Source: an uncultured Gammaproteobacteria bacterium (lineage in GTDB: Bacteria > Patescibacteriota > Microgenomatia > UBA10105 > UBA927). From it: a stretch of 64,000 nucleotides of DNA. Of the stretch, positions 3,001-46,900 are shown piece after piece (position 1 is the first letter of the stretch; each line of letters starts with the position of its first letter). Under the pieces are notes generated by a model. The model searched no databases. It was not told the DNA's origin and saw only the letters and a program-made list of their open reading frames with translations. Position numbers and translations under genes: made by a program. The stretch covers positions 174,484-238,483 of the forward strand of contig CAYGFH010000002.1 in NCBI GenBank assembly GCA_964349125.1. The letters are read 5' to 3'.

Positions 3001-6000
3001 TATTTAATTCGCGAAGCAGCTGGATTCTGTCCGGATTTTTCAGCAGTTTCTCAAATGCAGTAACCTGATTGTGATAATTCCTGACGGACTTTACAATGAC
3101 CGGAATCCCCTCAATAAGTTGCCATACTTCCCTCCCCTTTGCATACTTGGGAATAAGTTTAATCATTTCTAAAACATGCACATGTCGCCAATCTACCAAA
3201 AGAATCCGTAGAGGCCTGATAACAAAAAGCGCTGCATTGGTCAATGAATTTCCGCTTTGATTTAGTCTCTTTTCAGAGTCATCTGTAATTTCAATAGGAG
3301 AAACGTTCTCGATCGTCTGTTTTTGTGTATCTTCCTTTGTATTATTCTCTGATTTTTCAATAAAATCCCTATCAAAGGAAAGTGCCTTCTCCTGTTCAAA
3401 AAACTTCAATGTATCTACTTCGCTAGCGGGTTGAATTCTACCGGTTAAAAATACGTTGTACAAAATGGGACTGGGCAACTTCCCTTCTTTTTCATAAATC
3501 ATCTCCAGCATCTTCTGCTGGTATTGGTATAGAAACTGTCCGGCAAATATCCGTGCGAATTTTGGATCATTCCGTAGCGCCAGTAATTCTTCATAATATC
3601 CCTTCACTTCTTTTTGCCACTGGATTGATTCATCCAGAGCGTTAGTGCTCACGTACTGCTGTCTGAAAGGCAAATTCAGCATGTATGAAATGATAGATTC
3701 TGACGAGCCATTATGAGTCACGGGGCGCACCATTGGCTCAGATCGCTGATAAAACAACCTGCTAAGCTCCTTGAAATTCGGTATCAACTGCTCCATTTCC
3801 CCTATAAATTCGCTATCAGTAAGATCCAGCCTGTTCCAATACGGAAACAGTCTGTTGCGTAAATACTCTTCGGGATATGCATGAGTAATGAGGCCGCCAA
3901 GGGTAATAAAGTCTCGAATTTGAAACATCCCTTCATACAACAGCCTTATCTGCCATTTGTACCAACCTACAGTTTCAGGAATAGAATTTTCTCCCGCGGT
4001 TGCTTTGGGCTGTTGCCACTTGCGCCACTCGTTTATAATCTTCTTTTCTTCAGGAGTTTCAGGCTCTTTTATATACCCTGGCGGTAAAGCAGTCGAATTG
4101 TCGTACGGATCTTGAGGCAAAGATTCTACTTTTAGGACTGTAATTTGAAAATCAGGATCAGCCGTTTGAGTGGGATTCTGTTTCACAGATAGAGTCGATG
4201 CTGATCTGACCTGAGGATACTCTATAGGAGTAGGTTTCTCAGTACCCCGAGAATAAGCCAAAATATACTCAGTTCCTGCATACATTTGCTTATGTTCGAA
4301 TACGTAGTTGTCCTTATATGCTGGTGTGTATAACTCGAACAGATCTATATTGTCAGGTAGAATCTCATTTTTTGTACGATCATGTAGTGCAGCTGCGTGT
4401 GGCGGTAGTGATGGGGCTGCAACGGAAATAGTATTTGTTTGATCATCCCGAATTTTCACCGTGAAGTTGTAGGCAAATGCAGATTCCGTACGAGTGAAAT
4501 TAAAATTTAGGGCCGCGTTATTCAACTCAATTACAGGATAGGTACCATCGGGATACGTAACTCCTTCTAAACTCTTATAACTTATCCAAGTACCAGTTTT
4601 TGACGGATTTATATTCTCACTCACCGTGCCATCTTTCTTCAGCGTTAGTACATCCTCTATCCCTAGAGAAACCGTTTTTATATCCGATTGTGATCGCGCG
4701 TAAAGGAGAGCAGATCTATAGAGTAGCCTGCCGAGACCTCCGCCTCTGGTAGTAGGAGACACGTATACAAGACCGATATGCAGATCATCGGGTGATTTCC
4801 CTGGATTTAACCCAACAAACCCAAGCGGCACACCTTTTGCATCCGTAAGTTCCAGTACGACGGATCCAGGAATAGTGTCATCAAACGCCTCACCCGTAGA
4901 ACCAGGTGAAAATGCCTCCGGAACTTTTTTCACTACCGACACTTTCATACCATCTGGAGCATCTACTGCAAGTTCAGAAACGAGACTATCTGTGGGTTCG
5001 GACACTGCTTTTGATTGTTGCAGAAAATATTCTCTGAGTATCGCTATTTCGTTTTTATTCTCTGGATATACTTGTGAATACAATTCGAGAATGAAGTTTT
5101 TTCCGGTTGCTTCGTAGTACATCTTCAATAGTCCTTCATAATCAGCTCCAAACATCGCGATGGCCACTGCTTTATCTATCTCCGCTATCGTAAAGCGCTG
5201 AGTATTTTTTAATTCGTCAACTAACGCCATCGCTACACTGACTTCTTTACTATACGGAGTCCAAGAGCCAAATAATGAGAATATTTTGTTTGGTTTTTCT
5301 TTGCCAAATACTTCAAGTTTTCTTCTGGCGACCTCCGTTAACCCTTCATGTAACAGAGAATATGCCCCATTTATGACCTGCCTGGTTTCCTTGGTGCCTT
5401 CAGTAATCCCATCAATTCCAGCGACCTCAATTCTAGAAAGATTTTCTTCTATAACCCCTCGCTGGAGCGATGATTCGGATAAGGTAATATGCGACCTATT
5501 TGGATTATTTTGAGCCTGTATTCTGTGGATATCTTCATGCCGTTGTATTACCTTGTTTGTTATCAGCGTATATATATATGTTTTATCAATTAAAGGACTA
5601 TATGATGATGATCCCTTTGCGAGAAACAGTTGCCGTAAAAACCCTTGAAACCCACCTACGTGGATATACTGATCGGCTGAGGATCGTTCAACATTGATTT
5701 TCTCTTCAAGTCCGAGTGATGTTAAATATGCGCGTATATATTCAATTTGCTTATCTTGGATAACAAATTTTGCATACTGATGCGCTGTAATCCATTGCAG
5801 TATTCTGTTATGGATAGGATTTGCTACGGCTCCGATGAATGATCCTACTGGTCCAAAAGCACTCCCAATAACGGCTCCTATGACTACACTCGACACAGGA
5901 ACTGGTGACATTTTCTGAAGTATCTTCTCTCTAACATCTGAGACTGAAGGAGACACGTCAGATTGTTCATATGAATTCTTATCAGCAGGTTTTGTAGATA

Positions 6001-9000
6001 AATTTATCTTTATTGGGTGTAAATAGGATTCTCCATTTGTTTTTGCCGAGCGGAGGGTTGGATCAAAGACGACTGGCTCAAGGAATCTGTGTTTCTCTGC
6101 CACGTTTGCCGAAAAGAAATTGACCATATTCCCTAGAAGCTTTACGGATTGATTTTGGGTAATTATGCCAACAGCATTCGCTGATTGCATTGCGCTTTCT
6201 GCCAATAATTGAACACCATCTGCATACGATAATCCGTTCGGAATTTTATCCCGCTTCGGCAGTTGTTTATAAAATTCCAAGAAGGCATCTGCAGGAGAAA
6301 CACCCTTAGCAAGCGCACGAGTGATCAGTAATTCCCCAAACTGGCTTTGCTCCACCAGCTCAAAGTGTGCTGCATACTCTTTGGATACCATTGCAAGCAC
6401 TTCTTCCTTTGCCTGAGCGTATGACAATTCCGGATACTGCTTCATGAGAAGCGAAATCATAAATCCGGTCGCCATGCCTTCGTTCCATGCCTCGTTCATT
6501 ATCGGCCCCAGAAACCTCACCATGTCATGCCCTGCTTCATGTGCAGCCAACAGAAATTGTATGCGCTCAATATCTTTTAGATTTGCGCTCGCGCGAATGA
6601 CGTAGAGTCCCAGCCGCTCATCATAAAATGCCATCACGTTCTTTTGCTTCGGATAAAACAGTTCAAATTGTGCATCAGAATACACGACTGTGTTGTAGTG
6701 AATAGGATCTTTCTCTGCGAGTGGAAGCGGTAATTTGAGGTTGTTTAGAAGTGTTCGTATAGTTTCTACAATGCCAAGCACACGTGCACGGTTGAGTCTG
6801 TCCGGGTGAGCGTCATCAGGAGTCTGCTGCGATTCATACCATGCTTCTATCGCCTCTTTGCTTACGTCTGATAACTCTACTCCAGAGTCCTTGAGTGAGA
6901 GCGGATATCCCGCTGGATCTTTGATGTGTAAGGCTACATACCCTTTTGCCAGGCCGTTGTTTTGCCAAAACGGCTTTGTATAAAACTGTTTTAGTACTGC
7001 ATCCTGCCCGTCTTTTTGCTCCAATTGTGCTACCTTGAGCAGTGACCGTGTTACTGATTTTTTTGCTGCTGGCGTAATTGTCATGCGCATATCTGCAACA
7101 ACATCAGATGCTACTGCCGCCGGTGCTCTCATAATTTGCTTTGTGGCACGTGATGACAATAGCGCGGGCTCATCATGAATTCCCATGGATGCGAGGATCG
7201 CTTTACTCACTAAATGCGCAGGATCTATCGGGGGATTTACTTCATCCTTCAGGTATTCTGCAACTTCGTCAAATTCAGTTGCGGCTGACTTAAACGCTTC
7301 GGGTAATTCCGTACACCCAAGCACCACCTGTACATCCATTTCCTTCAATTCCTTCACCAGTGCCAACACTTCTTTATGCATTTCGTGCTTGCTGTTTATC
7401 GTATAGCCTATCTGATCGCGAATCTCATTTGGGACAAATGCATTGCCGACAGACACTTTATCCATCCATATGATTTTTTGCACACGGCTCATGACATTCT
7501 GCGGCAATGTATCTTTCTTTTTTTGCCTGTATGTCGTAAGGCCGTGTTTCTGTGACATGGTATTCATAAATACATCGGTTCCCAATATAATCACATCACT
7601 ATTATGTTTTGCGAAATTCACAATCTGATTGATGGTTAGGTAAAAGAGTGAATCACCTTCCCCCCACCGAATAGCCTTAAGTGCCACATCATGAAGCAAG
7701 CTGATAGTGTTACACGCGACAGAGAATTGACACCCGTACTGCTTGGCAAACAGGCGTAATTTTCCGTACAGTTGTGAGAGCCCGAGCCGAGCGTTAGTGT
7801 TGAGCATATCTGCTATCACAGTAGGCTTCATGCCTACCGCCGTCATAAGTTTTGCGACCCAATTTGGGATAATGCGCTGTGCTGCCCCAAAGTAAATGAG
7901 CGTCGCATTAATCCTCGGATCCAGCTCATCGGTAAAGGCAAATCCTGATCCGATATCTGGCGCCGCAATCCATGTCCGACCCGCAAGATTCGGGAACGGG
8001 AACGTTTCAATATCATTCACCAACTGCCAACTGCCATCTGCTTTTTTTGTATATACTGTGTCTCTATCCGCATTATTGTCTACTCTGATCCTGATGCGTG
8101 CACCCGGCTGTATGTGATGAAGCGGTAGCGCCTGATCCTCCAGAGGATACCGGATCCCTTTTTTCGGGAAAAAGAGAGCAAATTCTCTCGTAGTTGTTTC
8201 ATTTGGCAATACACCCTCCAACCACATAAACGCATCATGTTTCGCTCGCATCAAGCTGTCGGCAACCAAAGGCAACACTTGCATGCCAGGTCTGTAGGCT
8301 GTGAGTTTGGTGCGAACTTTAGAGAGGAACGCAGATGTATCCGCAGTACGAAGATCATATGTTGCGCCGACTGCATCCGCACCATCTCCATACAGCCTTG
8401 CCAACCGATTATATCCGCGTTTTTCGTCACCAAAATATTTCAACAGATACACATCCAAATCAGGCACGTTATTGTTGAGTTCTTTTTGCAATCCGGCGAG
8501 GTGGGCATCCGCACTGTTACTGCGTATCCTGTCCTGACTGGTGTACACCCATTTGGAGACAGTCGGAGCAAAATCATAGGCAACGCCGGGATGGAGGCGG
8601 AATGAATGCTTCTGATTATCCAATTTACTGGTATAGGTGTATGTATACGAAGAAAGGGCATCGGTAAATTTGCCTGCGAGGGCAAAGAATCCTTCCTGAG
8701 TAGTAGGTATTCTGGAGTTTTTTATCTGCGACAAGGTGACACCTATCGCTTCAGTTATGAGCTGATCCCCCAGTTCATGCCCTTCAGCATCCTGCAGAGC
8801 CTTGAGCTCTCCGGGAGAATCTATGGCTATCACATGAGCAGAGCCAGCCCTGCCGGGATAGGCAACATAGAGCTCTATCCCCCGTCTGAACGTAAGAATT
8901 TGTCCTGGTTGTATAGTGGCGAGCATCTGTTGGAATACCTCCATAGACCGGGTGGATATAATCGTCGGATCATTAGGACCATATCCAAGCTTCTTGACCT

Positions 9001-12000: not shown

Positions 12001-15000
12001 CAAGGACAAAAGATAATCCTCGCTTTCCTGACGCATCGGTGGTAGGAATCATCCATACGACTTGATCGGCCAAACTCCCAATATTCTGGTGACTCCCTTT
12101 TGTGTATATATACATTCGGAACGGCTCTGCAAACGTCAGATTCGTATCGTTATTTGCTCCGGGCTGTAATACAGCGAGACAGGCACGAATATTCTCTATG
12201 ATGCTGTCCATATCGTGTGTCATGACACTTGTGAGCAACTGTTTTCCGGTTTTTGCGTTTGTTAGTGCACGTATTTGATCAAGTTGTACTTGCAAATTTG
12301 GATTATCAGTTTTGATGTCACGCATTTTCTGAGCTACTGCGTATAATTGTTGTAAGATATTCTCTATCTTTACCACTTGTTTTTGGATGTTTATCAGATA
12401 CTCCGAGACAATACGTCGTTCTTCATCTGTCAAACTCGCACCTTGCTTGACCAATAATTGTTGCAGGTCGGCAATATCTTCTGAGAGAGCAAGTGCACCT
12501 GAACCGGTATGAAACTCCTGACCGATCTTTGAAAAAATTAACGAAACCCTGTCAGATGGAGCCAGTAAGTCTCTCAGAACTGTAAGTTCGTTTGAAGCCT
12601 GAAGAGCATCTGCCTGGCGGATCACAGTAACAGCTGTGGAGATTGTTTTCGCTGCTTTTTGCAATTGTAAAATTGTGGCCGGATCATCGAGCGCTTCTGG
12701 AGTATCAAGCACTCCTTCTAATGCACTACGCACGGCACGTTCACTCTCTGAGAATTCTACGTTTCTATTATTTGCGGTCTGATACATTTTCGAAAGCGTT
12801 GCGTTAAGCGGTATTCCCGGATCTTTTCGTAGAAGCGCAAATAGTTGCGATATGAGAACTGGAATGTGGGATGGTATCTTTTCATTCTTGTCTGGGATCG
12901 GGACATACAGATCAGGGTCGGCCAGTTTTTCAAAGTTCGATAAGAAATTTGCTAGCTCCTGATCCTTGGTTAATGTCGATCCTAACATAGTTGATTGCTC
13001 ATCCCGAGTTAGCATATCCATAAAATGATTTTTATCGTCGAGACTTAGCTCATATTCTTCAACTATAGACTGAAATATATCTTTTCGATTTTTTAGCAAT
13101 GAGGAAACGATTTGAGCTTTTTCTTCGGTCAAATACTCTGTGGGGTCTATAGAATCGCCATTGATAAGGCTATTCCACTTACCGTGCAATTGAACTGCAA
13201 GAAAATACCCGAGAAGAGCCTCTTTATCAGCATCACGGGCAGCAATATTTGAATAAAATATTGAAGTATTTATGATACTTTTTACCATCGCTTCTGATAA
13301 TTGGTTTGGAAGTGTTTTTATCCCAAATGTACTGCGGAAAAGCGCGGTCAAATCACGACGGTTTTTTTCGTTAAAGGCCGATATGACAGTTTCACTCTTA
13401 TCATTTTGCAGTGATCCTTTGAAAGCGGTAAGGTCCGCCAACAGCGTATCAGTTGATTCGTTTGCAGCTACCACTATTCCGAGCTCACGTTTTGTCGACA
13501 GCACAACTTTTGCTTTATACAAAGTATAGCCGCTTCGGATAAATTCCTTCACCTGGCTTTCAGTGGCACTTTCTAATGATTCTACAAGACGTATAAAAAT
13601 GCGTACATCCGTATTTATAATATCTATAGATGTCTCATAGAACAACGCGATTTCATCATCGCTCCAGTTTTCGGCTCGAAAACGGTTTTCCAATGCTTTT
13701 AATCGATTCATAAACACTTCTTTATCCGCCTTTTGCAGAGATGATGTATACAGTTGCATTATGAGCGATCTGGAAAAGCTCAGAAGTGAATTTGCTTTCG
13801 TCAGATACCCTGCTCCTCCGTACAACTTGCTCATGTACATACTTTGCACAAGCTGTTTCGGTACTATGTCAGATTTTCCGGAATTTATATATGACATCCA
13901 GTCGTTTCGCAGCTGTGTCCATATGAGATCCTTTGCTTCCCTTCCGGAGAAAATATCGTCAAGTTTTTGCTTATCTGCTTCACTAAAGCCAATTATATTC
14001 AGAGCATTTGCCCCATGTGTTTGCACAAATGCATAAAAAAGCTGCAGTACATTGTTCGTATCAATTTGTACTTCCCGATCCGACATCAATTGTGACTTTA
14101 CCGTCTGAAGCTGAGGAAGCACAGTGTCTATGGCATATGCGTTGAGCACATCCGTAAACATCGCAGTATCCTCTATATGGCCTAATCGTATACTCTCAGC
14201 TGTAATTTCTTCACTAAATCTCCGCATCTTCTCAACAACTCCGGAATTGCCATATTCAAGTTCTCTGGCGATTATCTTAAGAAGCTCAGGAGTGGCAGTT
14301 AAAATAGGTACTCTCTCGGTCTCTTCGGACGGAAATAGGAGGTTTAATTCAGCATTTGATAATCGTTGCAGGGCATTAAACACATCGCCCACTCTGTTTC
14401 CGATTGCAAACCATTGTTTCATATATCTGGCTAACAGCTTTTCTAATACCGGGTGTCTTTCCAAAAGGGACATATACGATTTCGCAATTTTTTCTGTGGT
14501 CGCACCCGATCGTCGCCATTCGGAAACGTGTTTCAGGCTTTCAAGATATATTTGGGCATGTGTGGTCGTGTTGCTTAGATAAAAAATATCTGAAATTGAC
14601 ACCCCTTCACGACTCCACTGGGGTATCCAACGCGTAAGCAGAGCTTCACGCAGGAACCGCTCCGGAATATTCGCAATAAGCTTTGCAAGGCTACCAATTT
14701 TGTAAGAGTCTTCCGCATCTGCTATACGTAAACTTGCCCGGATTATTGCAGCAAATTCATGCGGTGTATTATTGAACTTCATGTATGCGTCGGTTGGCTT
14801 TAGCTTATGATTTATATATGCTTTTGACCGCATATACGCCATAAAAATTTCCAGATCTTCATCGCTTATATTTGCCCATATTTCTGGTGTAGTTTTACTG
14901 TTTATTAGCGCTGCAACACCAAATTCTGCTCCCAAAATATTCAACTCACTCCTTCGTTTTTCAACCCGACTTGCTCGAGCAGCTTGAATCTGTTTTTGTA

Positions 15001-18000: not shown

Positions 18001-21000
18001 AGAGCGTGATTCCATCAGGGGATAAATACCGCGCTGCATGCCTCCGGAGTGAGAAATACCAATAATTTAACTTACTGTTACCCAACCGATACAACGTTCG
18101 AATTGCATTCGGACTATCTATTGCAACACGCACAAACGACATGCCGTCTTGTTTTAGAGCTGATAATGCGGCGATCCACCCTTCGGTTGCAGGCACGTTT
18201 TCTGAGGGGATAAAATAGACACCCACCATTCCCCGTTCTTCATTCCAATTTCGGATGGTTCCTATGATATGCCCCAGGATGACACCGTTTTTCCGTTTAA
18301 CCTCAAACACTGTTTTTCCATTTGATTGTTCTTTCTTCAAAAACTGTTCTACTTCAGATTCAAACCCACCATCGGTATCACTTGCGTATCGGCGAAGAGT
18401 CGCATCTTGTATAAGTTGTATTCGATTTGTCCCCATTGGTTGGAATTGCCCGTGAATTCTGTCATATAAATCTCCCAACACCCCAGAGAGCGCATCATTC
18501 ACGCGTGCAAGATCTTTTGAATCATAAGGAATAGCACGTTCCCGCAATGTTTCTATATAATAGGAAATAAAATCCTCTCTTGAAATTTCGGCATACAGTA
18601 CCGCTGGGGCATCTTCCTGAATTTGAGACAGTATATCTTTCAAGATGGTTAATGATTCTTTCCAGTATATTGAATCAACAACGTTGAGTACTCCCCTCAA
18701 ATGATCTTTGTTCGTAACAAATACAGATACCGCTTCAAAAATATCCTGAATATCAAACGTACTTAACGCTTCCTCAATTTGCGTGCCGTTACCCTCTAGT
18801 TCTTTAATCACCGCCTGTATTCGTTCAGATTGTTTTATCCACTCCAGAATGATCGGATGCTCGTCACTGTCACGTAACAGTTTATTTACATCCACAGTCA
18901 CACCATTTTTTGCCAGCATTGTACGAATCTGAGGCAGGGCTATGACCATCATTTGCTTTTTTAAATCCAGAGGGAATCGTTCGTTCATAAATAAACGTAC
19001 TATGCGAGTCAGCACTTCAGAACTTAATAATCTTCCTACGGTTGCTTCATTTGAATATTCAAGTGATTTTGCCGACATATATATATCCACTATCGATTCC
19101 CACGATACCGACTGTTTTCCTTGTGCGAAATCATTCATTTGTTCAAATCCGGACAATAATATTTTGTCCGACAACGAAGGGCTTCCTTTAGAAAATTCTT
19201 GTACAAAACGGGTGTATTGATCCATAATATTGACTTTGTCCTGATCAGACATATGTTGACCTGGTCCAAATGCAGATGCAGCAATCGCAAACTGTTCTCG
19301 CAATCGTTGAATACGATTATTCGGTCGTGTAGAAAATGTTGCTACCGCCGGATTAACTGATCGAGTCTCTTTATCAATGGCAATCGCGTATGAATTCGGT
19401 AAATCAAGTGTTTGTGCTATAACATGGTGCGACTGTTCGTGCGCGCTGATCTCGGATGTGTTTGCATCTGCCGTATACCCGTACATGTCAGGGTTGTCAT
19501 TCATATCCTCGAACACTGCAATTGCAGCCGCATCGGCCTCAAAAACAAATAGCTGATCAGATGAACGAAAAGAGATATATTTTGAGGCAATACTTCCCTC
19601 CGGCAACAACGCCATGATCCGTTCAGCATCCAGGGAATTCTTTTTATTTCGTACAAATTTTAGCAGTGTATGTATTTCCGATATGAACGCTTTTTTATCT
19701 TGTTCGAACTGTGCATACTGCTGTGTCGCATGATCACGATGCAACCAGGAAAAAGAATCAAATGCTATACCATATGCCTTCATGAGCCATGTGTTTAACG
19801 CAATCTGTTTATCCAATGTAACTTCTTTGAGCGCGTCTTTTAGTTCCACAGCAGCGAGCAATATCTGTTTTTTCTCATCAACCGAAGCTGTCTTATAATC
19901 CACAGATGCCTGGATGAACCGATGGAGCGATCGAGTCCACTGGACATCTTGGGGCTCACCAAACCATTGAGATGGATCTATGAGCATGGAGGGAGTAATA
20001 TTGGGCTCATAAGGTTGATCTGAGATCAGTGACCTGCTTATCTCACCTGCCAACACATGCCCTTCCAGAGCCAGAGAAACGTTTGTTTTCATAAATGCAG
20101 AGAGCTCCAACGCATATGCAGATCCCTGAACAGCATATCCGGACAAGAAATCACTTGCAGTCAAAATTTGTCCTAGCGATAAATATCGCTGAACCCTATT
20201 GTCCATCGGAATATTCTCTGCAAGTATCATCGATGCGATTTGCATTCTTCGGGATGCAAATGATGAAATGGCATTGACTCGACTATTCAACATATGCACG
20301 ACACTCCCATCTCTCATTTCCAATATTTCAAATATATCTAACGCATCGAGCTCATCTTTGCCTACTATATCTTGCAAAATCTGATACAGTGTTTTATTTT
20401 CCCTTTTACCCTGATATACAGACAGAATCGTGTCAACATCAGCAAGGACTGATAGAAATTGTTGCCCTGAATGCGGTGATTGCTTCAGCTGCTCAAGGAC
20501 ACGCATGGTGTACACAACGGGGGCGCTTTCCCGATAATTACTCACATGTTTTAACGCCAGCAAGAGGAGATCTATTCGTTTACTCGAGTCTATAGAACTC
20601 GATACCGCAGGCTCTGGCAGAGAATATTGAGAGGAGTCTGCTTCAATACTAAGTAGTAATCCTGAGTTCATCAGCACAGATTCCAATTCAAATAGAGCCT
20701 GTACGCTTTTGGATAACGCATCAAATCGATCCGAACGGTATTGGTCCTCATTTTGAATCTCAATGCTTCTCAGACGCTCTAATGCACCAAGCAATTGATC
20801 AGAAACCGCATTTTTCTGCTTTGTATATACCACTTTCCATTGACCCGGAGCGATTTTGGATATCGCAGGGACAGCAAATCCTTTTTTCGAAGCCTCCTTA
20901 TATGCGCTTTGAACCCGATTCATGTATTCATCTGCTTGCAACATACCGTCTTTCGTTGCTTTCACGAGCCAAACACTATCATCATCTTCCTTAAATCGCT

Positions 21001-37900: not shown

Positions 37901-40900
37901 TCAGAGCTTCTGTCCATTCCCCGGATGTAGGCACCTGTTTTTTTGGGTATTCGACAGGTTGGACCCTACCAACAGGTTCAAACCCTATCTCACTGGAAGC
38001 ATCGTGTGATACCGTCACGATATATTGATGTGCAGCTGCATCATGCGGCGCTCGTTCGAAGGTGAGTACATCACCAGGTCGGATTTGATAGGCAACTTCG
38101 TTTCTCAAGAGTTCTGACCCAATGTAGACACTTTGTGTAAATTCTTTTGGCAGACGGAGCCACATGGCGTCACCTGAAACCCCCATGTATACATATCCCC
38201 CATTGATCACTGATGGATCTGGAAGGCCATCCGAAGGAGTAGCGATCTGGTTTGCTACAGAGGTAAATCTCACGACTTCGTCGGGCGCATCTTGCGTAAA
38301 CCTGAATCCGTTAAAACTTTTTGTGAATGTGTCTGTGACAACATCATGATCCAAAGCCACTTCTACTGCTTTTCCATCAACAGTATAGGTAGCCTTCGTT
38401 ATGCTCATTTTTTCCAAAATTTCAGTAAATTTGGTTCGCAGCTGCAAGCCCACAGATATATCCGTTTTATTTGTTTCCACTGCTTGAGGATTGATGTCTT
38501 TTGTCAGATTGAAAAATTCCATAATCTGAGCAATTCGATTATTTGTGGATGTATCCAGCTTAAATAATGTCCCAATCACACTGTCCTCAAACGCGATAAA
38601 GTGAGATTTATATTCAGGAGACACGAAGTCATTGAGTACCTGTTCTCTAGCCTGCTTCCAGTATGTGCCATCTGTATCAGGAGTTTTACCAGCTTCCTGC
38701 AGCTCATACGCGCGACGAGCTATCATGAAAGTAATGGAGAGCGCTTCATTTGCCTCGCGGGTAAGCCAAGGCTCATACCTCGTTGTCATACTGTGACCAA
38801 ATTCATGCGCCACAAGATCGTCAAGAAACGCCTGTATTTTTTCGTCAGATTTTGCGAGCACAGCTGCACTCGCACGAAGAACAACCATATCAAAATCATG
38901 GTCATAAAATCCGGGGATTGTTTGGGTATACTCCGTAATCTGAGAATCTGTAGGATTTACCACACCATCAAGCCGCAGTTTTCTTCTGGCAAATGCACGA
39001 AGTTCCCGGTCAAACGATACATCATCAAGCACAGCAACTGTCCGCTGCAATACAGTGCTGTCCGATGGGACACGTGCAGCTTTGGCAAACGCAACGACTT
39101 TATCGACAGATTGCTGCACTATGCTACGCTCCAACACTTCCTGCTGAGTCAGCCACCGCAGCAGTGCCTCCTCGGTCTTTGATGATAAGACATTTCCGTT
39201 TCTTTCAATAGGATAATTATCAGGATCATAGATGTGTTGCCTGTAATACCCCTTGATTGAATGGTCAATTACCGCAGTATCAGGATCCGAAAGCGCGACG
39301 CTCTGCAGCGCAAACTTAGCCTGTATGAATGCGGGCGATTTACCGATATTCCGGATTGTCCTGTATGTTGGATAGAGAAACATCAAGAATTGATCCATGA
39401 GGTTTGCTTTTTCCCGCAATTGACCCGTCTTTTTGTCATATATTCGTCGATCGTTTATGACGGTTGACACATCTGAGACAATCTGCCCAACTGTGGCGCT
39501 CATTTTCATGAGTTTTACGGCTATGGAATCGTTGGCTTGCAATGGTGAAACTGCTTGCGATTGACTTCGTGCTACTCCCACTTCACTGTTCAATGTGGGT
39601 TGAACACCTACCTTGTTCATTGCGTCGATTATCACATTCCAATCTTCCGGCGGCGGATAATGACCGCTTGTCCTTCTGGTCATAAACGATGATCTATTCG
39701 GCAGCGGTGGCTCGATATTCTTCATATCCCATGCAAGCACAAACGTAAAAAAGCTGTTCAAAATATGATCAATACTTTTTGCTGTTTTTTCTTCCGAATC
39801 CGGCACTACCAGTTGTAATCTACCCTGATTTACCAGTTCACGCATCTGGGTTTTATACTTGAAAAGATCCTCAAGTGATGCAAGCATAACCAGATCCTTC
39901 CCGGCCATTTCCGGGTTCTTGCGTTCGGTAGCTGTGTGTACTGAGCGGGAGGTCACGATATGAAACCCGTCTGAATACACATCCAGATTGTCATATATGC
40001 GTCCGAGTAGACTGGTCCATTTCCCTTCATACCTCAGTACAGGCAGGCTTCCGATAGACATAAAGAATCGCCTCCAAGATGCCGGAAATACGGGATTATT
40101 AAATACTCTGGTTGCCCATTTGAGAAATTTATCCGCTCGTAAAGCGTTACCTTTGAGTTTTGTATCCGGATACAATAATGACAAATGATTGGGATTATTA
40201 TTTACAACAGACGCATCGCCTACGAAGCGCACATTTTTATACCGTTCATCTTTATATGTTTCAATACCAAACATTTCTACCGTGTAGGCACCGTAAGAAT
40301 GGCCTAGCATCAGTTCGATCTGTTCAGAATCTATGCCCAAGGCGGCGTTACCGATCTTTATCTGCCTGATCACATCCTGCACCACATATCGTCGACTCCC
40401 GCGAAGAATTGGAGGTTTCGCTTTATTTAACGCCCAATATGCTAATTTGCCAACATCTGTTACGTTATACCACCATGCCTGCAATCCGGTGATCCGTTTG
40501 TAATTCCCATCACTATCAAGCACGGGTTTTCCATCCTGCGTCGTCTCCACCACCCAGCTTTTCTTGCGCGCGGTTTGTTCTGCCCCACGAAGCGATTTGG
40601 CATCAGCAAATACAGGATTTTCTAGCGTAGATTCAGGAATGGCAAATTTCGAGAACAAGCGGAACACTTCCTTTGACGCATGGAATCCGTGGATAAAAAT
40701 GCGGACTTTCTTATTTTTATTTGCCAACATTACAGTTATTCTGTTTAGAAATTCCGGATGATCATTTTGTTGCAGACGTTGTAGCTCTAGGAGCGTTTCA
40801 GTCGGTAGTCGGATGGTAAGTAAATCAGCCGAATACTCTGCGCTGGGATCTTCAACATCAGATGAAATGGTTTCAAACTGAAAAATTCCGGCCCGAGGAT

Positions 40901-43900: not shown

Positions 43901-46900
43901 CGCGTTGGTATACGCTCGCTATATCAATAACAGCATCGTTCAGATATCGTTCTACATCCGATATTTTTGGACGCTGTGTTCCGGTTTGAAATATGGTCAA
44001 TTTTTTCCCTTTTTGTTGTGCTATCGCGATATACACCATCGCCTCATCCAGAATCTCTTTATATGTTGGATTATTTCCGGGATAACGCTGCGACGATGTT
44101 CCTTTTTGCGGTATATGGAGCCTCTCATGTAAAAATACGTGAATTAAGGCAGCTATCTGCTTTTCCTGTGACATTTTCGCTATTTCTGTATAGTTTATAA
44201 ACAATTCGGATACATCATCATCAGCATGTCTATGCAATCCGGTAAAGCCATCCGAGTACAGCTTTTTTGCCAATTCATTACTTACTGGATTTATGACCAC
44301 ACCCTTAAGATACTTTTCTCGTTCTTTGAGCGTGACCGCTGTGGAGGGTGGTTTTTCAAATAAGGATGAACGACTCTTACCGGTAAGACTTTCCACTGCA
44401 TCACCGAGTGAGTCAACTAACGCATCTGTATTGTTTAGCAACGATTTCTTGCCTGCAAATTCGGTTAAAGTGTCAATTGCAGCCAGTGTATGTCCGAGAA
44501 GCAAGTATATTTCTCCTTCACTGAGCTGATCAATTTTCTTTATCCCTTTCCCTTTATAATCTGATGTTCTTGTTATCAAACTATCTATTCTTGTTCTCAT
44601 CCCAATATCAAATACGGGGAGGACATGTTCTCCCATATCCAAACGGCCTATGACATATCGATAGGTTCGGTCAAGCCGCGTGAGCTTGTCTTTTTTGACC
44701 ACTCCAGAAAGCATTTTTTTTGCGTCATCTATAGAAATACTTCCAGCCTGATTATTATTTTCCTCTCGCACTTTTCTGACTTCCTCCGACAATATTTTAC
44801 GCAAACCGGACTGGGTATCCGCGCGCTGAAGTGTAAGTTCTTGCCTGTTTCTACTCAATTGCGCAACTATGCTCACACCGTTTGTGAGCGTAATTATTGA
44901 CTTATTATAAAGTGTGGTTACCTTTGCTTTTGTCTTTATCTTTTTCCCATCCACCAAAATTCCATTAGTAGATACGTCACGTACATACCACACACCGTCA
45001 TTGACAAATATTTCTAGGTGCCGTGCATCTATCGTTTGATCGTTGCCGTCCAATATTATATTGCTCACGTTTGCAGAAGAACCCAATGAGGCTATAGTCG
45101 ACCGGACATCGTTTTTATTTAACTTCGTTGTTGCGCCGTCTGTTAATATTTTTGTAGCTGTATCTTGTGAATATGAACGGATACTACCTGCTGACCCAAA
45201 AAATGCAACCTCTTTTCCACTCTTCTCATCTATCAACTGCATCCCACTGGATCCCTTGCTCACAATAAACGATGTGCCCCCAATGGTAAGTACATCCCGA
45301 TCGTTTAATAGCGTTTCTGAATTATACGCTTTTACAACAAGATTTATGTCGATCTGTGATTCTGTACTGACGTTTTTCACATACCAGTTTCCGTCTGCTT
45401 TTCGTACTATATTTACGCTCACAGCAGCTATATCAGTGTCCCCGCTGACTATGATGTCCGCTTGATTTCCTTTGCCGAGTGTAAATACGCTACGGATAGA
45501 GGGGTCTGCATACGTTTGCAACACGGATTCCCCGGTTTTATTCACGAACGCGTCTCTCCCATACCGCCCGATGAACGCAGGCGTCAACCGGATACCCGCT
45601 TCCTGCATAAATAGCGCAACGTCCGTGCGATAATCAAATGTAGTCTGATTCTTCGCACGACCGCTTATGATCCCTATATCTACAGCGTGGTCCTTTAATT
45701 TTTCTGCCTGTAAATCCTGTATGCCATACGACCACTGTTCTATATGCATAAGCGCTACGTTTCGCAACTGATCCATGGTCAATTTGGATATATCAGTGTT
45801 TCCAAGCATGAGTGTGCCTTTCAGATGCTGCGATGAATTTTCGAATCGTAACCCATTTTCGGGATCAAGCGTGTTTTTTCCTTCATCAACAAGCATACCT
45901 ACCCCTTCGGCAATTTCTTCTGCGTTCGATTTAGATAACTGAGAAATGACTTCCTCATATTTACCTGATTTCATCATTTCGATTGCCTGTTTTACATGAT
46001 TAATATATTTTTTCTCTCGTGCGTTCCATTTTGCAGACGAAAGCAGTGCTGGAAACGGATCTTTGAGCACCTTTGCCGAAGGCATAAGGGAGTCAATTTG
46101 AGCGTTCACGTCCGCAATCACAGCCCGTACCTGACTGACACCTCGTGCCAATCTGGCAATAGGCAGAACTGCCCCTTCCAGCGCATACCTGATATGCTCT
46201 AGTGCGCTCAGATTCCCCTGTGCTTTTTTGATCGCCTTCTCATAAAACTTCAACGACTGTTGTATGAATTTTGTTTGCGCCGTTCGTTTCGCGTCCCCTG
46301 TGAGGATCTGTCCCAATGTCTCTTCATTATATTTTGGAATATCCATCCCCAGATAATCCGTCAATTGCCCCATAGGCAGGAGATAGGTACTCATAGCTAA
46401 GATCTGTTCAGCGGAGGCACGAAGCGCTGCTTCTTTATTTTTGGGGAGCGATCCACCCATATACTCACCGTACGCAGCTTTTCCTGCTGCCATAAGCTCA
46501 TCTACTTGTACGCTTTGAATACCATTCAACACATCTGCCGGACCCGATTGCGCGCTAAACGATTGCTTCAGTGACTCCAGTAATTTTGCGTACATGGTCG
46601 CACCCATGATACTGTCGATTCCGTCGGCTGATATTTTTGTTTTGTTATCCAGCGCATCTACAGCCGCAGTTAACTTATCTACATCTGCTCCTGCGGATAC
46701 CACAGATGAGACCAATCTCACATTGAGCGATTCGATAAATTTGATGATTTGAGCAGGATCACTAGGTACATCAAACCCCAGATCAGAAAGTGCTATACCG
46801 ATCGCTTTGACATCTGCTGCATATGCGTCTGGGGCGATAATTCCGTTTGCGACTAAAGCCTGTATTTTTGAAAATATTCCTTTTTGATTCCCATCTGTTA

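Follow-up and report, generated by a model that had tools for sequence, protein, structure and literature searches.

A putative gluzincin-type zinc peptidase domain shared by two tandem giant genes of an uncultured bacterium

Two adjacent genes of more than 10,000 codons each occupy almost the whole of a 64,000-nucleotide stretch of contig CAYGFH010000002.1 (assembly GCA_964349125.1, positions 174,484 to 238,483, titled as an uncultured Gammaproteobacteria bacterium; the full stretch is called the window hereafter, and all coordinates are counted from its first nucleotide). Gene A (31947-63869, minus strand) is complete and codes for 10,640 amino acids, and gene B (2-31528), immediately downstream on the same strand, codes for more than 10,450 amino acids and has its 3' end outside the window. 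The question raised by this locus is whether a short HExxH motif in gene B, read in an earlier note as the signature of a gluzincin-type zinc peptidase, marks a genuine catalytic centre, and what such an enzyme would be doing inside a protein of this size. Taken as a whole, our best explanation, to which we assign a probability of roughly 0.5, is that the motif lies in a gluzincin-type zincin domain serving as a built-in processing protease. The core of this explanation, a true gluzincin-like catalytic domain belonging to a new family, appears quite probable from sequence conservation and structure prediction; the processing role is argued by analogy with other large proteins and is put forward tentatively, at somewhat less than even odds.

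Translation of the minus strand placed HEAGH at 6527-6541 (residues 8338-8342 of the gene B frame), where it supplies two predicted zinc-binding histidines and a predicted catalytic glutamate. It is followed by WNEGMAT at 6467-6487, in which the glutamate codon (6479-6481) specifies the predicted third zinc ligand and the asparagine is kept in nine of ten aligned sequences. The signature had been described as HEAGH-x16-E; the motif itself is present, and the spacing has to be corrected to x15, the glutamate lying 16 residues past the second histidine. Similarly, the interval 6400-7150 proposed at that time covers the motif and only about two thirds of the domain, which extends from 6005 to 7120 on the minus strand according to a profile hidden Markov model (HMM; frame residues 8145-8516, E 1e-161) and from 5912 to 7174 according to the limits conserved in BLAST alignments with eight homologues (residues 8127-8547), for a size of about 370-420 amino acids. 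Besides gene B, neither strand carries an open reading frame (ORF) of at least 100 amino acids in the interval 6400-7150.

Comparison of A with B by BLAST returned a single match, which is this same domain (28% identity, E 2e-12). The paralogous copy in gene A spans 38325-39257 on the minus strand (frame residues 8248-8558, HMM E 7e-38) and is centred on HEFGH (38793-38807), with the glutamate at 38745-38747 in the context NEALS and the same x15 spacing as in B. A profile search found one copy of the domain in each gene, in both cases an internal one, about 78% of the way along A and along the portion of B that lies inside the window.

An exhaustive HMMER search of 1.84 billion representative sequences matched 11 proteins, six of which are long (914-7,292 amino acids, E 4e-97 to 2e-15). 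A first alignment of seven sequences (A1) was too divergent to yield search patterns, and a closer alignment (A2) was used for a genome scan, which added four loci in metagenome-assembled genomes (MAGs) titled 'uncultured Gammaproteobacteria bacterium' and one metagenome contig; the same scan with a single protein as query gave no matches. Four of these five loci show one ORF of 3,184 to more than 7,000 amino acids that spans the match and reaches the edge of the fetched stretch. Besides the copies of A and B, eight distinct ones are carried by giant proteins from metagenomes, most of which come from MAGs with a Gammaproteobacteria label, and one has a Gottesmanbacteria label (P0004, a protein named by NCBI as from Candidatus Gottesmanbacteria). 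A word-indexed search of 5.8 billion clusters, with either the segment or the alignment as query, returned nothing, and this same search missed known homologues twice. No match was obtained by tblastn against plasmid and phage collections.

Alignment of ten distinct sequences, with pairwise identities of 18-72%, revealed 24 invariant positions among the 372 of the gene B domain. H8338, E8339, H8342, P8350 and E8358 are identical in all ten and the spacing HExxH-x15-E never varies; only two of the eight histidines and two of the 25 glutamates of the domain are invariant, and these are exactly the residues of the signature. The remaining invariant residues include KGY (6938-6946) and YP (6902-6907), which lie on the minus strand within the helical N-terminal portion, the FYD and R located just before the active-site helix, and a V-S-x-x-Y motif (6374-6388, minus strand) downstream of the glutamate helix, with its tyrosine at 6374-6376. 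Since the signature residues are invariant in ten sequences, the idea that homologues might have lost HExxH or the downstream glutamate, an outcome that the earlier note had considered, is refuted.

The fold predicted by AlphaFold from the single sequence was poor, with a predicted local distance difference test score (pLDDT) of 42, and the seven-sequence alignment A1 raised this value to 82.5, with a predicted template modelling score of 0.78 (pLDDT of the five models, 76-82.5). In the resulting model, an N-terminal helical part leads into three strands (residues 138-141, 158-161 and 166-170), followed by a helix (175-196), a loop, a second helix (204-222) and further helices. The HExxH motif corresponds to model residues 188-192 within the first of these two helices, at a local pLDDT of about 76-82, and His192 lies four residues before the end of that helix. 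The seven-residue loop (model residues 197-203) holds an invariant GP, seen in gene B as a Gly-Pro turn at 6503-6508 of the minus strand with its proline invariant, after which helix 204-222 bears the invariant Glu208 four residues in; if the two helices pair in antiparallel fashion, His192 and Glu208 would be level with each other. Ahead of the active-site helix, the stretch AFYDE...LYVIR (6593-6628, minus strand) forms two predicted strands carrying the invariant F, Y and D (6620-6628) and R (6593-6595).

Gluzincins, including thermolysin-type enzymes of family M4 and aureolysin (H352-E-x-x-H356, with E376 as the third ligand), display the order of a sheet with a substrate-binding edge strand, an active-site helix and a glutamate helix (PMC9002140). 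The model of the gene B domain shows the order sheet, active-site helix and glutamate helix, and because of this the all-helical non-zincin fold envisaged as a possible refutation is not what the prediction gives. The gluzincin-type reading is thus supported by the motif, by its conservation and by the predicted topology.

No known family was found to claim the domain. Scans of Pfam and NCBIfam gave no peptidase match for a 1,000-amino acid segment, nor for any of seven family members at E<=10, with the reservation that HMMER filters may conceal matches with E above about 0.1. Whether queried with the protein, the full profile or a profile of the core, the PDB returned chance matches only (PP5, cell-binding factor 2 and a transcriptional regulator), and a marginal match to PHROG 87, annotated 'metallo-protease', was obtained for one of the seven members scanned (E 0.0046). 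Foldseek against PDB and BFVD gave no match below E 0.1. The best of its weak matches (E 0.35 at the lowest) include unrelated zincins such as MATCAP (7z5g), IrrE of the IrrE/ImmA family M78 (3dti/3dte) and selecase (4qhi_B), together with phage IrrE-like and SprT-like proteins in the viral library. Selecase superposes with a target-normalised TM score of 0.50 and a root-mean-square deviation (rmsd) of 5.9 Å; these structures nevertheless differ from the domain in that all E values are at least 0.35, global superpositions give an rmsd of 13-19 Å and no sequence relationship was found. Thermolysin-type enzymes likewise share the topological order and differ in having neither sequence nor significant structural similarity to the domain. 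Because no known family claims it, we consider the domain a likely member of a new and very rare family, previously unclassified, that bears a gluzincin-type signature predicted from sequence and model; the kind of enzyme itself is well known.

The proteins in which the domain is found are mosaics. In gene A, an FHA domain (PF00498) was recognised at 44886-45086 on the minus strand (E 3e-13), and in gene B a GNAT domain (PF00583) at 4661-4867, also on the minus strand (E 1.4e-07), about 540 residues past the zincin-like domain. A sub-threshold match in gene B (12266-12403, minus strand, E 0.0045, 17.6 bits against a cutoff of 28.5) concerns PI_PP_I (PF18363), a phosphoinositide phosphatase insertion domain known from SidF-type effectors of Legionella. 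Recognised Pfam domains are otherwise nearly lacking in both proteins, and the C-terminal 683 amino acids of A, directly followed by B, match no Pfam family. Among the relatives, L003 likewise has GNAT downstream of the zincin-like domain, and the module directly upstream of the copy is PP2C in L003 and HopA1 in L002. Nearly all related giants contain FHA, in one to four stretches; it stands beside PP2C in one case and close to a HATPase_c region in another, which suggests phospho-signalling modules. AvrB_AvrC, HATPase_c, GNAT and a lipase-like region are also found in relatives; P0003 contains the Fic motif HPFRDGNGR and has a source annotation naming GGDEF and Doc, and on the Gottesmanbacteria-labelled contig the gene just upstream codes for a PT-HINT protein. 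Five collinear blocks link gene A (frame residues 2751-9867) to L002, the L002 zincin-like domain being 24% identical to the A copy and 47% identical to the B copy, and B and L004 have common blocks in a different order. The giants evolve as mosaics in which modules are shuffled. The Pfam matches of A, B and the scanned homologues include no glycoside hydrolase, no glycosyl transferase and no cell-wall-binding family. RHS, filamentous-haemagglutinin and secretion-associated trafficking families are likewise missing from the Pfam matches.

If the domain is an active peptidase working by the general mechanism of HExxH zincins, its zinc ion would be coordinated by His8338 and His8342, which share a helix, and by Glu8358, located where the following helix begins; Glu8339 would serve as general base and activate a water molecule. 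The peptide substrate would lie along the strand pair AFYDE/LYVIR ahead of the helix, an edge-strand role taken from gluzincin architecture (PMC9002140). Contacts with the substrate or the transition state might be made by the invariant FYD, the invariant R and Tyr8393, the tyrosine (6374-6376) being a candidate transition-state stabiliser. Acting in cis or in trans, with the neighbouring giant included among its substrates, the domain might then cut the precursor and thereby release or activate its other modules.

This processing role, and with it the plausible autoprocessing mentioned in the earlier note, is favoured because the domain is constant, single-copy and internal in otherwise variable mosaics and is the only module common to A and B. 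Internal peptidases of giant polymorphic toxins have been interpreted as releasing peptidases, and those of polymorphic toxins, polyvalent proteins and MARTX or large clostridial toxins (a cysteine protease domain in the last two) resemble the present case in being placed inside a very large multi-module protein (PMC3482391). A comparable placement upstream of other modules is observed here, with GNAT downstream in B and L003 and effector-type modules in relatives, and the PT-HINT and effector-type modules of the relatives are a further point of resemblance. The pattern F[DN], [RK], HExxH described for Tox-MPTase4 (PMC3482391) recalls the FYD...R...HExxH of the domain. The Pfam matches included no Tox-MPTase or PVC-metallopeptidase model, and neither an immunity gene nor a trafficking domain was seen.

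Several points weigh against the explanation of the domain as a catalytic, self-processing zincin. The spacing x15 is shorter than in M1 aminopeptidases (x18) and in thermolysin and aureolysin (x19, from H356 to E376 in the latter). No significant sequence or structure match to known peptidases was obtained in Pfam, NCBIfam, PDB profile or Foldseek searches, and the analysis identified neither a cleavage site nor a secretion signal or an immunity gene. Because the relatives were found through the zincin-like domain, its presence in all giants is partly circular. As regards the nature of the domain, the earlier note had compared it with M1/MA-clan peptidases on account of WNEGMAT, which resembles the WLNEGFA-type glutamate motif of M1 aminopeptidases. 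M1 enzymes (PF01433, E. coli PepN) do share an HExxH helix after which a second helix contributes a glutamate ligand from an N/K-E-G-hydrophobic motif, and Peptidase_MA_2 (PF13485) has a short HExxH...EG-x-A signature of a similar style; alignment by hhalign of the core profile with the catalytic region of PepN also sets HExxH and the glutamate in register, with one three-residue gap. That alignment, however, covers 29 columns at a probability of 0.27%, PF01433 and PF13485 were unmatched at E<=10 in the seven members, the spacing differs, the flanking domains are unrelated and M1 structures were absent from the best 50 of 167 Foldseek matches. A GAMEN-like motif (G.MEN or [GA][AG]ME[NQ]), which might have been expected upstream, is absent from both A and B. 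The domain can thus hardly belong to M1 or Peptidase_MA_2, even as a divergent branch. Another possibility is that the protein is no hydrolase at all, the motif being fortuitous or a relic in a mostly helical structural domain, or the zincin fold having been reused for binding; the failure to match any peptidase family, the largely helical model and the poor single-sequence prediction would be compatible with this. Relic sites, on the other hand, lose their catalytic residues, and in this domain the four signature residues are the sole invariant histidines and glutamates over a range of 18-72% identity, with a three-stranded sheet preceding the helix in a confident model. The motif is also far above chance, since composition predicts 0.13 HExxH in B and 0.05 in A against three and two observed, none of 300 local-composition shuffles matched these counts, and, as in A and B, an excess of HExxH is seen in four of eight related giants that were tested. 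We consider a non-hydrolytic domain very unlikely.

As regards function, the domain could be an active zinc metallopeptidase delivered as one effector module among others, cleaving proteins of a host, prey or competitor instead of the giant itself. Many effector proteases are HExxH zincins, as exemplified by NleC/NleD and anthrax lethal factor, and Tox-MPTase families are HExxH zincins among toxin proteases (PMC3482391). The relatives bear modules of the pathogen-effector type (HopA1, AvrB_AvrC and the Fic motif), B has the weak SidF-type PI_PP_I match, and the HINT-type autoprocessing modules near relatives could account for processing, which would leave the zincin-like domain as a payload and which makes this alternative a serious one. 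It fits less well with the constancy of the domain, as the other payload modules vary between proteins while this one is the sole module common to A and B, and with its internal rather than C-terminal position; we regard it, on balance, as rather unlikely. A peptidoglycan peptidase used in predation is far less probable. Some zincins do cleave peptidoglycan cross-links. Giant Omnitrophota proteins, which contain glycosyl hydrolases, glycosyl transferases, peptidases and many transmembrane regions, have been tied to predation (bioRxiv 10.1101/2023.11.21.568195), and a predatory or cell-wall setting had been suggested for this locus. The modules associated with the domain are instead of the signalling or effector type (FHA, PP2C, GNAT, HopA1, AvrB, Fic), and the cell-wall families are absent from the Pfam matches. 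A and B also differ from the Omnitrophota giants in having few hydrophobic segments, the relatives are labelled Gammaproteobacteria or Gottesmanbacteria and not Omnitrophota, and the peptidases named in the Omnitrophota study are of the C39 and S8 families and not HExxH domains (bioRxiv 10.1101/2023.11.21.568195). The Omnitrophota context was dropped because of this mismatch with domain content and labels.

With a built-in processing protease retained as the best explanation, a bolder extension can be formulated, which we consider improbable at present. The domain might be the signature self-processing protease, here a zincin instead of a cysteine protease or HINT domain, of a protein class that has not been described: mosaic multi-effector polyproteins without repeats, exceeding 10,000 amino acids, in uncultured Gammaproteobacteria and possibly in bacteria of the candidate phyla radiation; after delivery it would cut its precursor, and the neighbouring giant in trans, to free FHA, PP2C, GNAT, HopA1, AvrB and Fic-type effectors. 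In more immediate terms, A and B together represent about 21,000 residues for which the zincin-like domain offers a first firm catalytic handle, its four signature residues are open to point mutation, and the profile retrieves the whole of a rare protein class (11 representatives in 1.84 billion). Should the domain process the giants, it would explain their conversion to working parts and add a zincin to the few self-processing proteases of toxins; as an ordinary payload, it would merely be one more orphan zincin family.

Possible HINT-type elements were noted in several relatives, namely at residues 2242, 3652 and 5374 of P0003, at about 6980-7000 of the L003 ORF (2-21052, plus strand), at 1-1264 of L006 and at 751-814 of P0006, the last being a weak intein-splicing match. 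P0003 contains a Cys...VYAQ...C..G.TY...IPR.G.Y module repeated three times. In the window itself, no HINT-type autoprocessing element was found.

Three further HExxH sites, all on the minus strand and in a helix-like context, are HEQSH (19427-19441) and HEDIH (5525-5539) in gene B and HERLH (44115-44129) in gene A. Together with HEFGH, HERLH bears out the two sites that had been reported for gene A. It is plausible that the three are zincin helices, and they have neither a Pfam match nor homologues among the collected related sequences. Their interpretation as distant copies of the zincin-like domain was ruled out (hhalign probabilities of at most 5.6%, no Pfam match). The earlier count of at least three metalloprotease modules in the locus is half borne out: HEAGH in B and HEFGH in A form one conserved family, the other three sites being candidates without a family match.

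About 30 residues past the profile end of the gene B domain, a Gly-rich hydrophobic stretch, MSPVPVSSVVIGAVIGSAFGPVGSFIGAVANPI (5813-5911, minus strand), could be a membrane-inserting segment. It was considered as a part of the zincin-like module and dropped, as homologues do not conserve it.

Known giant bacterial proteins are mostly repetitive adhesins or nonribosomal peptide synthetase and polyketide synthase enzymes. A and B, which stand in tandem over 2-63869 and exceed 10,000 codons each, are unlike these, both being non-repetitive (no internal repeats by BLAST). The gene B frame is free of stops from 2 to 31552 (10,517 codons) and is truncated by the left edge of the window. Its start is uncertain, as the first ATG is at 31528 and another, at 31357, lies before a hydrophobic N-terminal segment (frame residues 65-83). 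The spacer between the stop codon of A and the stop that opens the B frame (31553-31946, 394 bp) is AT-rich; it contains no terminator-like site and a single weak promoter-like match, a second such match being located within the 5' region of B. Co-transcription of the two giants is possible.

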